64,000 nt of DNA from a virus (taxonomy: Duplodnaviria; Caudoviricetes): positions 8,894 through 72,893 of the IMG/VR virus record IMGVR_UViG_2513237213_000006; one strand, written 5' to 3'. Positions 8,720 through 63,984 of this stretch are shown here, piece after piece. Position 1 is the stretch's first letter, and each line of letters opens with the position of its first letter. Below the pieces are notes generated by a model, which saw only the letters and a program-made list of their open reading frames with translations, searched no databases and was not told where the DNA came from. The position numbers and the translations under genes were made by a program.

Positions 8720-9291
8720 ACTGCTATCTGACGGAACAGGAGTTATTGCCGTATCAGAACATCATGGATGAACTCACGATGGAAGATGCGCAAATGGCTT
8801 CAAGTCTGATTGACGGTTATTTAGGACGGTCTTTCGCTTTATCGCAGTTCACAGACCGCATTAAATTGCGGAAGGGCAGAGGAAAACTCAGTCATTCGCC
8901 TGTGGCGAGTGTAGACAAGGTGGTGGGAGTTTCCCGCTCCATGTTTGGCAAGGTGAAGTCCGAAATGTCCCCTGAAGTGATTGATCTTGATCCCGAAATG
9001 GATGGTTATTTCACGCTCGAGAATGATTCAACAGACCTGACGGCAATGGTATTCAACACAGTTCCCGAAATGCTGCTTGTTACCTATACCAGCGGTTTTG
9101 CTGAGTATCCTCAACGACTGAAAGACGCTTGCGGGATGCTTGCTTGCAACATTCGTCAGGCAAAATCCTTCGCTGGGGCAAAGCAATTAACCTCTTTGGA
9201 CTTTCAGGTGCTTATGACGGATGATAGCTTCTTTACATCTGACATAAAACTGCTTTTGAAAGGGCTGAGTTACGATGTTCGCAATGTTTAA
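8716..9291 (+). CDS. Head-tail connector/adaptor
   Basis: 'YLTEQE...ASSLIDGYLGR...YTSGF...LKDAC' connector pattern; position. Confidence 0.7.
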   Translation: MNCYLTEQELLPYQNIMDELTMEDAQMASSLIDGYLGRSFALSQFTDRIKLRKGRGKLSHSPVASVDKVVGVSRSMFGKVKSEMSPEVIDLDPEMDGYFTLENDSTDLTAMVFNTVPEMLLVTYTSGFAEYPQRLKDACGMLACNIRQAKSFAGAKQLTSLDFQVLMTDDSFFTSDIKLLLKGLSYDVRNV

Positions 9292-59877: not shown

Positions 59878-59905
59878 AAAAACCACCCGAAGGTGGTCGT
59901 TTTTA
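59878..59905. terminator. Bidirectional terminator between convergent operons
   Basis: AAAACCACC-CGAA-GGTGGTCGTTTT. Confidence 0.75.
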
Positions 59906-60109
59906 ATGTGATAATGCACCTCTGTATCTATTCAATGCTTCTTCAGCGGTCATTTCGTCGAAAGCATGTCCCATCGTATCAAGCAGTTCCATAGCGTCCT
60001 TGTGAGGCGTGTTAGCGGCCTTCATGGACAAAACAAGATAAGCCAGCACAATGTCGTTGAAGCGTCCTGAGTCGAATAATCGGCAGTTTTCTTTTTCAAT
60101 CTGTTCCAT
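59903..60109 (-). CDS. Small acidic hypothetical protein
   Basis: AAAGGA SD; last gene of the minus operon. Confidence 0.65.
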   Translation of the reverse strand: MEQIEKENCRLFDSGRFNDIVLAYLVLSMKAANTPHKDAMELLDTMGHAFDEMTAEEALNRYRGALSH

Positions 60110-60592
60110 TCACTTTATCCTTTCTACTCTGTCAATCCAATCATAACTAAACCAAACGGTGCTCTCACAATCCCAACAGTGGAAGGGCATAAAACCATCC
60201 TTGGCCATCCATTTATACTGCACATCGAGGTGAAAGCCATCATAGCCCTGCAGGGCGTACCATCCGAAGTCGATATGCGGGAAAGGAAGAAAATCTGTTT
60301 CTTGAAGCTGAAGGTCGGCAATATCGGTCGGCTCAAAGACTTTCAGGTCTTTCTTGGGATGCAGGAGGAAGTGGTGTTCTCCGCAGTGATAAGGGGTTTC
60401 TCGACACCATTTTTCCCAAGCGGAAATATACGGCGAGTCGGTGTATCTCGTGGAAGTCCACAGGCCAATGTTAGGTTTATTCAGCAATGGCTGGCCAGTT
60501 ATCATGTTGCGGTCGAGGTCAAAGAAAACAAACTCCTCGCTGTCTGTGCAAAATATTTGGTCAGGAAGTTCGTTTAATACTTTCATAAGCAC
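60110..60592 (-). CDS. Hypothetical protein, possible ART-like fold
   Basis: 'KPNIGLWTS...W..WC', 'YDGFHL', 'WDCES'. Confidence 0.55.
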   Translation of the reverse strand: MLMKVLNELPDQIFCTDSEEFVFFDLDRNMITGQPLLNKPNIGLWTSTRYTDSPYISAWEKWCRETPYHCGEHHFLLHPKKDLKVFEPTDIADLQLQETDFLPFPHIDFGWYALQGYDGFHLDVQYKWMAKDGFMPFHCWDCESTVWFSYDWIDRVERIK

Positions 60593-60593
60593 C

Positions 60594-61388
60594 TCAGTGA
60601 ATCAAAGAATAGGCTTGGGGGCTGTGTTTCCGCAGGATCTCCAAAGGGATAGAGCACTGACCGCATTTGCAGTGTTTGACATTTTCTCCTAGCTTCTGCA
60701 GATCATTGTCAATGGTGCCAATCGGGGGACAGAGCCGGGACTCACCAAGGGCAATAGAGCCGTCTATATTGATGCGCGGAGTGCAGTATTTGCCGACAGG
60801 CATGGTGTTTACGATGTGCCTAAAACTTGTTTCGGGGATTTGGTTGGCTATGAGCCGGAGGTTTACGCACTTCGGGGCTTTTGTTTCCCAGCGAGCGTCT
60901 TTGAGGTTCAGGGCGCGACCTTGCGGGTAAAGATAAATCTCGCTGACCTCGTCAACTACAGAGCAGTTTTTTATTTTACTCAGCCAGTACAAGTCCTTTT
61001 CGATAAGGCGCTTTGGATAATACTCCTTGACCGCAGTAACCTGTGTGAGAAAATTTTTAGCGCGGTTCTTTACAAAATCTCTGTACCAGTTATACAGGTC
61101 TTTATCATGCGCAAGCTGATACCCATTGGTGGCGATAACAACGCCCACTCGAGGGAATCTCTTTTGATATTCCGCAATCGTTTCCAATACCTGTTTTATC
61201 TGCGGGTGCTCAAAAGGCTCTCCTCCGCTGAAAACAATACACTGCATGGTGGAATAGCCGATAAGATCATAAGCAAAATCCAAATTCCTTTTCAGCTGTT
61301 CCAGCGTGATGTGCTTTCCGTCTGTGGTACAATCGCTCAAGCAGTGGGGGCAACCCATCGAGCAGTAGTCCGTAAGAGCTATTAACAT
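60594..61388 (-). CDS. Radical SAM protein
   Basis: 'CSMGCPHC' CxxxCxxC, 'FSGGEP', 'IATNG'. Confidence 0.9.
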   Translation of the reverse strand: MLIALTDYCSMGCPHCLSDCTTDGKHITLEQLKRNLDFAYDLIGYSTMQCIVFSGGEPFEHPQIKQVLETIAEYQKRFPRVGVVIATNGYQLAHDKDLYNWYRDFVKNRAKNFLTQVTAVKEYYPKRLIEKDLYWLSKIKNCSVVDEVSEIYLYPQGRALNLKDARWETKAPKCVNLRLIANQIPETSFRHIVNTMPVGKYCTPRINIDGSIALGESRLCPPIGTIDNDLQKLGENVKHCKCGQCSIPLEILRKHSPQAYSLIH

Positions 61389-61460
61389 TTTATCACCTCA
61401 ATATTATCCTCTTTTCGTGCTATATTTGCGGCGTTGAGCGCGGTGTTTTTATTTGCCATA

Positions 61461-62204
61461 TCATACCTCCTGTATCTTGTCTGTTATCTTGAACACATCG
61501 ACCACCAGTTCCTTCTCGTTACGGTCATCTATATAGCATAGCACATATTTGCGGCTGACGGTAGCGGTCAACAGGACTCCTGGCTTGCCGTTTTCATACC
61601 TTGACTTGAACCACTCGGCCTTTTCTCTGTTGTCTGTCCAGCTGAGTCCATAACGCTCTCTCCCCGGCGATACGCCCCTGTATATGGTAATGGTGTCGGG
61701 CAGGTTGTTGTAGTATTCGAGATCCGCGGGTTCCATCAGGTGCTTCTTCGATGCGCTTCGGAAAAAATTGATTGCCTCTTTACGGCTTACGTTTATGTCT
61801 TGGTTCGGGTCTTCCTCGTCCAGCCAGCATTGCTTCAGATATTTTGCATAGTCCTTCTCGCTCATGTACTCACGGCAGAGCTTGAACCATGTCATTTTAT
61901 ACGGTCTGTTGATTAAGAGGTACAGATGGCCAACGTCGCTCCTGTCAATCAGCTCCATCATAAACTTGCGGTAAACCTTGTAGCCATCGGGGGTGGTTAA
62001 ATCCAACACTTCCCCGGTCTGTGGGTTCATGGAAATAGTGGAGGTGGTGAAGGGGTGAGAGCATATTCCCAGCCCCGGTAGGGCTTTGTTTTCTTCGATT
62101 GGCACTGCGTTAAACAGCAGTTTTGTTGTATGGCGTATTTCTTCAAGGTTGGTTTTCAAAATCTTATCCTCACTCTTCAAAATATTTACAGATACCTTTT
62201 TCAC
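61461..62204 (-). CDS. ADP-ribosyltransferase-like protein (R-S-E signature)
   Basis: 'TIYRG', 'GLSWT', 'RNEKELVV' in the canonical order. Confidence 0.6.
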   Translation of the reverse strand: MKKVSVNILKSEDKILKTNLEEIRHTTKLLFNAVPIEENKALPGLGICSHPFTTSTISMNPQTGEVLDLTTPDGYKVYRKFMMELIDRSDVGHLYLLINRPYKMTWFKLCREYMSEKDYAKYLKQCWLDEEDPNQDINVSRKEAINFFRSASKKHLMEPADLEYYNNLPDTITIYRGVSPGRERYGLSWTDNREKAEWFKSRYENGKPGVLLTATVSRKYVLCYIDDRNEKELVVDVFKITDKIQEV

Positions 62205-62352
62205 CTAATTCGATTGCAACATCCATGTCCTCGGTAGCCACATTGGGATTGTGACATTCCTCTACGTTTACAAGAGTACAACCTCCACCAAAAGAGGGGT
62301 CATAATCTCCTCCAAATGCTACGGCGTGTTTGCAGTTTTCACAAGTGTTCAT
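62170..62352 (-). CDS. Small Cys-rich protein
   Basis: AAGGAG SD; 'CENCKH...C...C...CKYF'. Confidence 0.65.
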   Translation of the reverse strand: MNTCENCKHAVAFGGDYDPSFGGGCTLVNVEECHNPNVATEDMDVAIELGEKGICKYFEE

Positions 62353-62367
62353 TTTTATATCTCCTTA

Positions 62368-62396
62368 TTTACAAATAATCTGAAAAGTATTATAAT
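62368..62396 (+). promoter_or_regulatory. Promoter P1 of the repeat-mimic cassette
   Basis: TTTACA-N17-TATAAT. Confidence 0.7.
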
Positions 62397-62411
62397 CTTA
62401 TATGTAGACAG

Positions 62412-62442
62412 GTATTCGCCCCGCATTGGCGGGGATGTATCA
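62412..62442 (+). CRISPR. Solitary type I-E-like repeat
   Basis: GTATTCG-CCCCGC-ATTG-GCGGGG-ATGTATCA; same stem and 8-nt handle layout as E. coli GAGTTCCCCGCGCCAGCGGGGATAAACCG. Confidence 0.6.
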
Positions 62443-62527
62443 GAAAATCAAATTTTATAATTTGAGAGCTGTGTAATATTTAAGGTCAGCCTGTCTGCGA
62501 TTGTAATTCCCTAAATATTCCTCGCTA

Positions 62528-62536
62528 TGGTATGAT
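62528..62536 (+). promoter_or_regulatory. Extended -10 promoter P2
   Basis: TG-G-TATGAT, 27 nt upstream of the first I-F repeat. Confidence 0.5.
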
Positions 62537-62562
62537 GGGGGTTACAAAGCAGGTCAGCCGCA

Positions 62563-62639
62563 GTTTACCGCTGAATAAGTGGCTTAGAAAGTATAAGCGG
62601 CCTAGAACGACCTGTATGTTTACCGCCGAATAGGCGGCT
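62563..62639 (+). CRISPR. Type I-F-like mini-array (28-nt repeat, 27-nt spacer, 22-nt repeat)
   Basis: GTTTACCGCTGAATAAGTGGCTTAGAAA and GTTTACCGCCGAATAGGCGGCT; 20/28 and 18/22 identical to GTTCACTGCCGTATAGGCAGCTAAGAAA, with compensatory stem changes. Confidence 0.85.
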
Positions 62640-62714
62640 GTCAGGCTTCGGCCTGTGGATTGAAACACTTTATTTTTCTATTAAGGAAAAGGAAAAAGTC
62701 CCCCGCAAGGGGGC
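62640..62714 (+). CRISPR. Type I-C-like repeat, 31-nt spacer and GTC-led hairpin
   Basis: GT-CAGGC-TTCG-GCCTG-TGGATTGAAAC carries the exact 11-nt I-C handle; spacer is followed by GTCCCCCGCAAGGGGGC. Confidence 0.75.
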
Positions 62715-62720
62715 TTTTTC
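62697..62720. terminator. Bidirectional terminator
   Basis: CCCCC-GCAA-GGGGG flanked by A- and T-runs. Confidence 0.8.
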
Positions 62721-62726
62721 GTGTTT

Positions 62727-63020
62727 TTATTCTTCCACTTCGCCCCATATGGCCTCATATTCTTCGACCGTCATAGCGTTTTCTGCCCAGCGTTTTGCTT
62801 CATCCTCCGTGATAGGCTCAATGGCTTCATCATAATACGGTGTATTGGCACCGCCGTTCCGATGCAGGAAGAACTCGCCTGTTTTCTTCAGATACAGAGT
62901 GCTTTCCTGATAGTTCATATCGTTGCAAGCGATAATGTCGCGCCCATTGATATTGTCTTTGTGTCCCAGTTCTTTTGCGGTTTCAGTGTCATATTTCTTG
63001 CCGCCGATGATTTTCTTCAT
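62727..63020 (-). CDS. Small acidic phage protein (MKKIIGGKKYDTETAKEL...)
   Basis: AAGGAG SD; acidic 97 aa. Confidence 0.8.
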   Translation of the reverse strand: MKKIIGGKKYDTETAKELGHKDNINGRDIIACNDMNYQESTLYLKKTGEFFLHRNGGANTPYYDEAIEPITEDEAKRWAENAMTVEEYEAIWGEVEE

Positions 63021-63022
63021 GG

Positions 63023-63358
63023 TCACTGCTCCTTTTTCTTTCGTTCCAAACACTTTCTGATCCTCAGCGCGTTGAGAGTGGGGGAGTCGCTTCTATACTC
63101 GCCCTTACTGTATGGAATATAGTTGTTTGCCAGTTTGGTTGATATTCCCAGTCGTTCTGCTGCCTGTTCTATACTCAATCCCTGTTGCATAAGTTTCGTC
63201 AGTTCGTCGGTTCGCTCATAACGAACTGCACCTTCGGTTATAAGGATTTTTCGCACTTTGCCAAAGCTGAGACCGCTTTTTCGGGCAACCTCTTTGATAG
63301 ACTCGCTGGCCTTGTACTCCCTAACTATCGCTTTTATATTCGCCATACCTGTACACAC
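63023..63358 (-). CDS. Tandem HTH protein
   Basis: 'SIKEVARKSGLSFGKVRKIL' and 'LSIEQAAERLGISTKLANNY'. Confidence 0.75.
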   Translation of the reverse strand: MCTGMANIKAIVREYKASESIKEVARKSGLSFGKVRKILITEGAVRYERTDELTKLMQQGLSIEQAAERLGISTKLANNYIPYSKGEYRSDSPTLNALRIRKCLERKKKEQ

Positions 63359-63426
63359 CTCCTTTTTGACAAAATCGGGTAAACAATTTTTGACATATTT
63401 TTTTCGATATGACGGGCCGAAAATGC

Positions 63427-63984
63427 TTAGTTTCGTTCTTTGAATATATCCCCAATATCAACACTCACATCTATGGATTCAACGAGTGTCAAGTGGGGGT
63501 GTTCGTCTTTTTCTTCGGCGGTCATTTGCATCCATTCTTCAGGAGGGATAAGCGTATAGATGTTATCCAGTCTATAATTGCTATAATGCAGTTTGTAGAC
63601 CTCAACCGCCTTATCTCTAGGGCTGACAATCCAATATTCAGGCACGCCGATTCTTGCATACAACTCTTTCTTTACAGTCATATCTTTTTTGCGAGTGCTG
63701 GGGGAGAGTATTTCTGCAACAAACACAGGAACGCTTGTTATGAGGCCGCTTTCGGTATGCTCTATAGGCTTTTGGTAAACGGCCAAATCGGGATAAACAA
63801 CATCGCCTTTACTGGGGATTAAGCCGACATCCTGAGTTAAAAAGAACTGCGTCGAGTCCAGTGAATTTTCTATGATGTTCGTTAAATTCTTGTCTGCCAT
63901 GAAGTGGAAAAGGCTAGTAGGGGACATTCTATACTTCACTCCTCCGATATATTCTGATGGGATTTTCTCTAATAACGCATCCAT
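63427..63984 (-). CDS. Uma2-family endonuclease-fold protein
   Basis: 'YPDLAV', 'PVFVAEILSPST...D...KKELYARIGVPEYWIVSP'. Confidence 0.9.
   Translation of the reverse strand: MDALLEKIPSEYIGGVKYRMSPTSLFHFMADKNLTNIIENSLDSTQFFLTQDVGLIPSKGDVVYPDLAVYQKPIEHTESGLITSVPVFVAEILSPSTRKKDMTVKKELYARIGVPEYWIVSPRDKAVEVYKLHYSNYRLDNIYTLIPPEEWMQMTAEEKDEHPHLTLVESIDVSVDIGDIFKERN

Follow-up and report, generated by a model that had tools for sequence, protein, structure and literature searches.

A Selenomonas phage carries a cassette of CRISPR-RNA mimics that ends in a probable crRNA-like repressor of type I-C cas genes

The DNA analysed in this work, hereafter the window, is a 64,000-nucleotide stretch of a viral sequence (IMG/VR record IMGVR_UViG_2513237213_000006, positions 8,894 to 72,893) that constitutes the right-hand 64 kb of a 72.9-kb contig. 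The window contains genes for a large terminase, a portal protein, a DNA polymerase and a primase-helicase, and it is therefore assigned to a tailed phage; the G+C content of the phage contig is 45.7%, compared with 50.7% for the chromosome. The host is a rumen Selenomonas, placed in the ruminantium group. Its genome, which carries the phage, contains a complete type I-F system with a single CRISPR array made up of 36 repeats of GTGTTCCGCCGTATAGGCGGCTTAGAAA (G000:C1:1013713-1015850), flanked by cas1 and cas2-3 on one side and by csy1-4 on the other, and a whole-genome search detected in it no Cas5c, Cas8c or I-C array. None of the spacers of the host array matched the phage contig, and none of the spacers in the genomes of the genus was seen to match the first 20 kb of the window, a comparison in which many of the relatives' arrays read as N. 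Several of these arrays are present in the genome collection as runs of N (e.g., L105:9620-10405 and L025), which limits the matching of spacers to phages.

Our computational analyses have identified, within a 374-bp gap separating minus-strand genes of this phage, a cassette of CRISPR-RNA mimics of about 315 nt (62403-62720), of which the I-C unit examined here is the last. The cassette lies on the plus strand, opposite to every neighbouring gene, and begins at a sigma-70-type promoter (62368..62396, plus strand; TTTACA-17-TATAAT, 11/12 matches, predicted start near 62403), the sole plus-strand promoter called within 62200-62800, which is divergent from the ORF upstream of the gap (62170-62352, minus strand). 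At the other end, a bidirectional intrinsic terminator (62698..62720, both strands, with GTCCCCCGCAAGGGGGCTTTTT at 62698-62719) closes both the cassette and a convergent minus-strand ORF of 108 aa (62727-63053) that has no family match. This ORF and a 111-aa helix-turn-helix protein, which together occupy 62727..63358 on the minus strand beside the terminator, form a candidate acr arrangement of the Aca-like kind. The genes adjoining the cassette match PHROG families, and the minus-strand accessory island around it (window positions 59903-63984) encodes Uma2-family nuclease-like, helix-turn-helix and radical SAM proteins, members of PHROG 4776 and PHROG 8582, and small ORFs without a family match.

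The cassette and the surrounding 20 kb match nothing among GenBank phages, and neither the exact I-C unit nor its handle-plus-guide pattern was found in IMG/VR, where the intergenic region is missing from the sole relative of a flanking gene (L027, 55% identity). A scan of the window with Rfam returned two tRNAs only. The whole gap folds far better than its shuffles (z = -5.6), and the hairpins of the II-C and I-C units described below are both present in the fold of the entire intergenic region. The homologous units that are closest to those of the cassette come from Selenomonas ruminantium, i.e., from the genus of the host.

The units of the cassette were assigned to CRISPR types by family-wide BLAST searches of the gap and by inspection. 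Unit A (62412..62443, plus strand) is a G+C hairpin (stem 62419-62424 / 62429-62434, loop ATTG) with the look of an I-E repeat. We found neither an array with its stem nor any I-E-type array in the 24 genomes of the genus, and the best match of the AT-rich stretch downstream of it falls inside a coding gene; unit A is at most a tentative I-E mimic. The form CGCCCCGC-NNNN-GCGGGGA of this unit recurs 3' of ordinary genes in two genomes, G002 and G011 (L109, L110 and L112). Unit B (62500..62549, plus strand) is a type II-C repeat mimic, consisting of a 37-nt mimic (62500-62536) and an anti-repeat-like tail, GGGGGTTACAAAG (62537-62549), that can pair with the 5' end of the mimic. Homologous 36-nt repeats occur in arrays of G238, G231, G242 and G005, the last of which is a genome of the same genus where the array lies beside Cas9 (1098 aa) and Cas1 in a II-C layout. 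Unit B lacks a tracrRNA tail of the type of the G005 tracrRNA, and in the II-C loci of G005, G013 and G238 nothing convincingly matched the 16-nt and 11-nt sequences just upstream of the mimic. The 3' end of the unit carries a -10-like TGGTATGAT.

The next part of the cassette is an I-F mini-array (62563-62639) that comprises a full repeat, a 27-nt spacer and a hairpin-only repeat. The first repeat-like unit (62563..62590, plus strand; full 28 nt, handle CTTAGAAA, with CUUAGAAA beginning at C62583) aligns to the I-F arrays of the host and its relatives, and it is followed by the spacer-like stretch (62591..62617, plus strand) and by a second repeat-like unit (62618..62639, plus strand) that has no handle and directly abuts the I-C unit. 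The latter hairpin is identical to the I-F repeat of the relative G021 in 20/22 bases, including its GAATA loop. The three unit types verified in the cassette (viz. II-C, I-F and I-C) are the same three CRISPR types that were detected in the genus (viz. I-F, II-C and I-C).

The I-C unit starts with a repeat-like part, GTCAGGCTTCGGCCTGTGGATTGAAAC (62640..62666, plus strand), in which GTC is followed by a 5-bp cUUCGg hairpin (C62642-G62655 through C62646-G62651, TTCG loop) and by the 11-nt I-C handle TGGATTGAAAC (62656-62666). The handle is identical to that of the I-C array repeats of the family (e.g., in G033 and G112), in which the stem is of 6-7 bp rather than 5 bp. This part is the predicted binding and cutting site of Cas5c. 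A spacer-like guide of 31 nt, the AT-rich ACTTTATTTTTCTATTAAGGAAAAGGAAAAA (62667..62697, plus strand), lies between the handle and the terminator, and no promoter of the unit's own is present directly upstream. The original prediction, made from the letters of the sequence, of an exact I-C handle 3' of a shortened 5-bp stem, a 31-nt AT-rich spacer, and a GTC-led 3' hairpin doubling as a terminator agrees with our reading of 62640-62720 in all three respects. Its further suggestion that the 3' hairpin resembles the 5' part of an I-C repeat is poorly supported, the likeness being confined to GTC and a G+C-rich stem, with no handle and no identity to the first stem. Matches to the handle 10-mer alone are within chance expectation (5 with at most one mismatch in the window, 6.1 expected), and the 11-mer occurs twice in the 3.6-Mb genome; hence, the significance of the unit derives from the combination of its features and from its homologues, not from the handle alone. 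The handle together with the start of the spacer recurs in the I-C cas loci of relatives.

The nature of these homologues became clear from 30 cas5c loci collected from Selenomonadaceae, 9 of which carry a solitary unit lying antisense between cas3 and cas5c (L054:3580-3780, L055:170-372, L059, L060, L064, L072, L075, L077 and L079). Each native unit consists of its own promoter, GTC, a hairpin, GGATTGAAAT, a spacer and a terminator. In all nine loci, the first 11-17 bases of the spacer match a site just upstream of cas5c that is preceded by TTC, the PAM in 9/9 cases, and both spacer and target vary between genera yet stay matched to each other. The mismatches between them are found mainly at positions 6, 12 and 18. 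These are the flipped-out, non-pairing positions in type I Cascade known from structural work. The stems of the native units differ in sequence and still pair, and the handle is invariant across these nine units and two solitary ones, viz. that of the phage and one at a contig start in G090. The native solitary unit is a putative CreR-like autorepressor of the I-C cas genes. The native units end in terminator hairpins unrelated to that of the phage unit and have no second repeat. Imitation of a second repeat by the phage 3' hairpin need not be assumed and has poor support.

Other solitary elements with I-C-like features were also observed. The G090 unit (L031:15-130) has a long stem, the exact handle, a guide ATTTATATTTTTATTAAGG like that of the phage and a terminator; it adjoins genes for a DUF4870 protein and a VanY-type peptidase in a genome that has no Cas5c. 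G009, which belongs to the genus of the host, has at L014:1480-1535 (minus strand) a solitary I-C-like repeat of 33 nt whose stem is weak and AT-rich and whose handle is exact; no Cas5c was found in the G009 genome. Six copies of an element of about 60 nt ending in CTACCGRCGTGGATTGAAAC are scattered over contigs of G026 (L018, L020-L024); they resemble the terminus of an intron or mobile element rather than a CRISPR unit.

In family-wide BLAST searches, the sequences most like the handle and spacer of the phage were found in two Selenomonas metagenome-assembled genomes, G018 and G021, whose units lie inside I-C cas operons, on the opposite strand, in the gap between cas3 (~745 aa) and cas5c (219 aa); an I-C array is present in G021 at G021:C23:26569. 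Over positions 1-20, the guides read ACTTTATTTTTCTATTAAGG in the phage, ACTTTGTTTTTATGTTAAGA in G018 and ATTTTGTTTTTCTATTAAGA in G021, and 17-18 of the first 20 bases of the phage guide are common to the two native guides. The stem, promoter and terminator of the phage unit all differ from those of G018 and G021, and at guide position 6 the phage has the base of the target, not that of the host regulators. The site in G018, TTC|ACTTTATTTTTATGTTAA, which begins behind its TTC at L054:3584, lies directly against the -10 box and spans the predicted start of the promoter that reads into cas5c (12/12 consensus); it is matched by the phage guide perfectly at positions 1-11, with mismatches at 12 and 14 only (16/18 overall). 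The corresponding site in G021, TTC|ATTTTATTTTTATATTAG, is mismatched at positions 2, 12 and 18 (15/18 overall). No I-C locus with a perfect match to the guide was found, the real mismatches lying at position 14 in G018 and at seed position 2 in G021.

A pattern consisting of TTC and the phage guide, with N at positions 6 and 12 and at most one mismatch, has matches at two places only in the 24 genomes of the genus, and both of these are the I-C cas5c promoter sites described above; within each of the two loci, 0/200 shuffles matched TTC plus the guide. The I-C system is present in 3/24 of these genomes, one of which (G022) has no intergenic target, and the genome carrying the phage has no TTC plus guide site. 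In the entire family, the pattern has 15 matches compared with 8 for a reversed control, weak matches being common because the guide is AT-rich; given this control, the other family-wide matches (including that in G270) are treated as AT-rich chance. Ten loci among these matches (in G080, G105, G128, G228 and others) were rejected as they lack an I-C handle in the expected arrangement, and in L100, one of the ten, the only I-C handle lies ~540 nt from the match and on the other strand. The I-C locus of G112 was likewise rejected as a target of the phage guide: it has no TTC-PAM match and possesses a different guide and target of its own. The distal 11 bases of the guide matched nothing anywhere that was searched. 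The search for a TTC-flanked seed match in cas promoters that the original prediction called for was positive at the G018 and G021 sites, and its proposal of a crRNA-shaped RNA, released by a single Cas5c cut and guided to a host promoter in the way of CreR or crlRNA rather than acting only as a decoy, is supported by these PAM-flanked matches and by the near-identical native guides.

Variants of the cassette are found in metagenomes. Nearly the same I-F hairpin and I-C unit are present in contigs of runs X1 and X7, which belong to two rumen or gut studies; in a contig of run X5, which belongs to a third, the same hairpin and I-C unit are preceded by an additional I-F unit that has a different guide. 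In an 11-kb contig of run X2, a unit-A-like hairpin separates the I-F hairpin from the I-C scaffold, which is the same as in the phage and carries a different guide. The identical 27-nt scaffold with other guides is found in L104 and in contig X2; one of the contigs sharing this scaffold is from rumen and one, rich in G+C, from a fermentation metagenome. The parts of the cassette behave as reusable modules.

The Selenomonas units have in common with the phage unit the handle and about 20 guide bases, and the guide has TTC-flanked matches in cas promoters; the I-C unit is therefore best read as a crRNA-like repressor (Cracr), and we consider it probable that it represents a phage copy of the RNA that regulates the I-C cas genes in the family of its host. 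Transcription of the cassette, processing by Cas5c, loading into Cascade and repression are steps that we infer from the sequence. Cas5c would cut at the 3' base of the cUUCGg hairpin, the processing of I-C crRNAs by Cas5 being established (cited in PMC10651486). The product, comprising the 11-nt handle, the guide and the terminator hairpin, would load into I-C Cascade in competition with immune crRNAs, and its guide would pair with about 17 PAM-proximal bases of the TTC-flanked site at the cas5c-cas8c-cas7 promoter. Such pairing would be too short for cleavage by Cas3 and long enough to block transcription, so that the phage would both tighten the autorepression of the host and deplete its Cascade. 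As the genome carrying the phage has no I-C system, the I-C unit cannot act there and must serve other strains; these would be I-C strains such as G018 and G021.

The phage could also have kept the unit as a pure decoy of the Racr type that ties up Cas5c and Cas7, in which case the likeness of its guide to the host guides would be a leftover of its origin. We regard this as unlikely, although a solitary I-C repeat mimic, RacrIC1, is known to inhibit I-C in vivo by sequestration (Camara-Wilpert et al. 2023, PMC10651486), the same repeat-like part is joined to unrelated downstream sequence in L104 and contig X2, and the targets in G018 and G021 are matched imperfectly. Compared with the host units, the phage unit has a new stem, a new promoter and a new terminator, but it retains the handle and the 20 PAM-proximal guide bases; the target's base at guide position 6 also speaks against a leftover. 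Sequestration is already part of the Cracr mechanism, and the decoy explanation therefore differs from it only by denying the guiding step.

There is even less in favour of an inert fragment of a host cas3-cas5c intergenic region that was captured and has no function in the phage. Phages do acquire host DNA and the present host is without I-C, but the flanks expected of such a fragment (viz. the target site, the cas5c promoter, the promoter of the regulator and the cas3 terminator) are absent, and the unit fits exactly between the I-F hairpin and the terminator with a strong promoter upstream. The near-identical copies in contigs of three other rumen or gut studies, and the companion mimics that match the CRISPR types of the host genus, also argue against this explanation, which we consider very improbable. 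Least probable of all is a guide aimed elsewhere, for example at another host gene or, in superinfection exclusion, at a competing phage. Viral mini-arrays often target other viruses (10.1101/2023.03.03.530964), and no match was found for the distal 11 bases of the guide. Within the genus, however, the guide has PAM-flanked matches nowhere but at the two cas5c promoter sites; it is unmatched in GenBank phages and IMG/VR, and it is common to the hosts' own regulators, which adjoin their target.

In the I-F part of the cassette, the first 17 nt of the guide match every repeat of the host I-F array behind a CC PAM, with exact matches to CC+GTATANGCGGCNTAGAA at 36 sites (C1:1013722-1015843). The guide agrees with the host repeats at 15/15 pairing positions and is mismatched only at 6, 12 and 18; three mismatches placed at random among 18 positions would fall at exactly these positions in 1 case in 816. 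Its first five bases are the loop of the host repeat (GTATA), and the loop in the I-F repeat-like parts of the phage is GAATA, the same as in G021. In G010, of the same genus, a native I-F regulatory mini-array whose spacer is 26 nt long was observed just upstream of a Cas3-like gene (L037:1400-1560, minus strand); its target is CC-flanked (1408-1424), adjoins TATAAT and is mismatched at spacer positions 6 and 12. The repeat-like part of this mini-array is nearly the same as that of the phage, with CAGTTTACCGCTGAA common to it and the first phage I-F unit. The phage I-F unit therefore seems, from this near identity and from a guide that matches the host repeats, to be a retargeted copy of a native I-F regulator. 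Silencing of the array by Csy complexes bound at its repeats is speculation. Two further I-F elements were observed in the course of this work. In G093, an I-F-type mini-array (L035:1420-1560, minus strand) with a TTGACA-17-TACAAT promoter and a 19-nt first spacer lies beside a DNA methylase gene and may be another mobile-element unit. At the end of the G021 I-F array (L030:1720-1760), the terminal repeat is degenerate and its hairpin is followed by a T-run, resembling a terminator.

Taken as a whole, the cassette raises the possibility, which we put forward tentatively and hold to be somewhat less probable than its converse, that one transcript hijacks several unrelated Cas nucleases, viz. 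Cas6f of I-F, Cas5c of I-C and, by way of the II-C mimic, tracrRNA and Cas9, with the I-F guide directed at the repeats. Cas6f would release the I-F crRNA-like RNA and Cas5c the I-C one, and the II-C repeat mimic would engage tracrRNA and Cas9. Csy complexes of the host would then coat the host's own array upstream of csy1-4, and this coating would block crRNA production and spacer uptake and possibly read-through into the effector genes.

Two features of the cassette look new, viz. the combination of I-F, I-C and II-C units in one heterotypic cassette and the I-F guide that matches host repeats; the available portions of the cited Cracr, mini-array and Racr literature contain no description of a heterotypic cassette or of repeat-directed silencing. 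The I-F unit points to a possibly new class of target, the CRISPR repeats themselves. The I-C unit provides an independent case of a phage copying a host cas autoregulator, beyond the genera named in the available text of the Cracr preprint, whose main text makes no mention of Selenomonas (10.1101/2024.10.29.618823), and infected I-C cells would probably shut off their own CRISPR genes. The nine co-varying native pairs of guide and target offer unusually clean comparative support for autoregulation of type I-C, for which CreR-like elements were noted only briefly in the accessible part of an earlier report (10.1101/2023.03.10.532045). In addition, the minimal 27-nt cUUCGg scaffold, which is naturally reused, may serve as a compact guide scaffold for I-C tools.

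Four kinds of known RNA are comparable to these units. The phage I-C unit resembles the host CreR and creA-like mini-arrays (10.1101/2023.03.10.532045; 10.1101/2023.03.03.530964) in its handle, in about 20 guide bases and in its inferred target, as well as in the partial complementarity that suggests repression without cleavage; it differs from host CreR in lying outside a cas locus and distant from its target, in its hairpin and terminator, and in that it would serve the phage, not the host. Like Racr (RacrIC1, PMC10651486), it is a solitary mimic of an I-C repeat, carried by a phage in anti-defence surroundings, and would compete for Cas5c and Cas7, but Racr are defined by sequestration only and the guide of the phage unit has a PAM-flanked match in a cas promoter. 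The viral single-guide and scaRNA-like RNAs against Cas9 are phage copies of a Cas9-regulating RNA (10.64898/2026.06.01.729453), a logic of phage copying that recurs here, and the II-C unit of the cassette may, by analogy, belong near them; unlike these RNAs, the II-C mimic has an upstream sequence for which no target was found and has no tracrRNA tail like that of G005.

The closest correspondence is with Cracr, the viral crRNA-like repressor RNAs already described by Liu et al. (10.1101/2024.10.29.618823), an idea foreshadowed by Shmakov et al. (10.1101/2023.03.03.530964). According to the available portions of the Cracr preprint, these consist of one repeat-like part, a spacer-like part and a terminator; 219 are predicted, and the cases tested are V-A, I-E and I-F, with I-C among the predicted candidates only (10.1101/2024.10.29.618823). 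The I-C unit resembles Cracr in several respects: a tailed phage encodes it away from any cas locus; its one degenerate repeat keeps the hairpin and the cognate handle; and its guide, which is close to that of a host CreR (as found in G018 and G021), matches a cas promoter next to the correct PAM at 9 or more PAM-proximal positions (11 in G018). As in CracrVA1, it is composed of a repeat-like part, a spacer-like part and a rho-independent terminator, and it lies in a multiplexed transcription unit beside a helix-turn-helix gene and small ORFs. As all of the sequence-level features of Cracr are present in it, the I-C unit belongs to a kind that is already known. It differs from Cracr arrays in being fused to an I-F mini-array and placed downstream of a II-C mimic, apparently on one transcript; this arrangement suggests that a single precursor can combine RNA anti-CRISPRs against different CRISPR types, counter to the published observation, as given in the accessible text of the preprint, that all units of an array are invariably directed at a single CRISPR type or subtype (10.1101/2024.10.29.618823).
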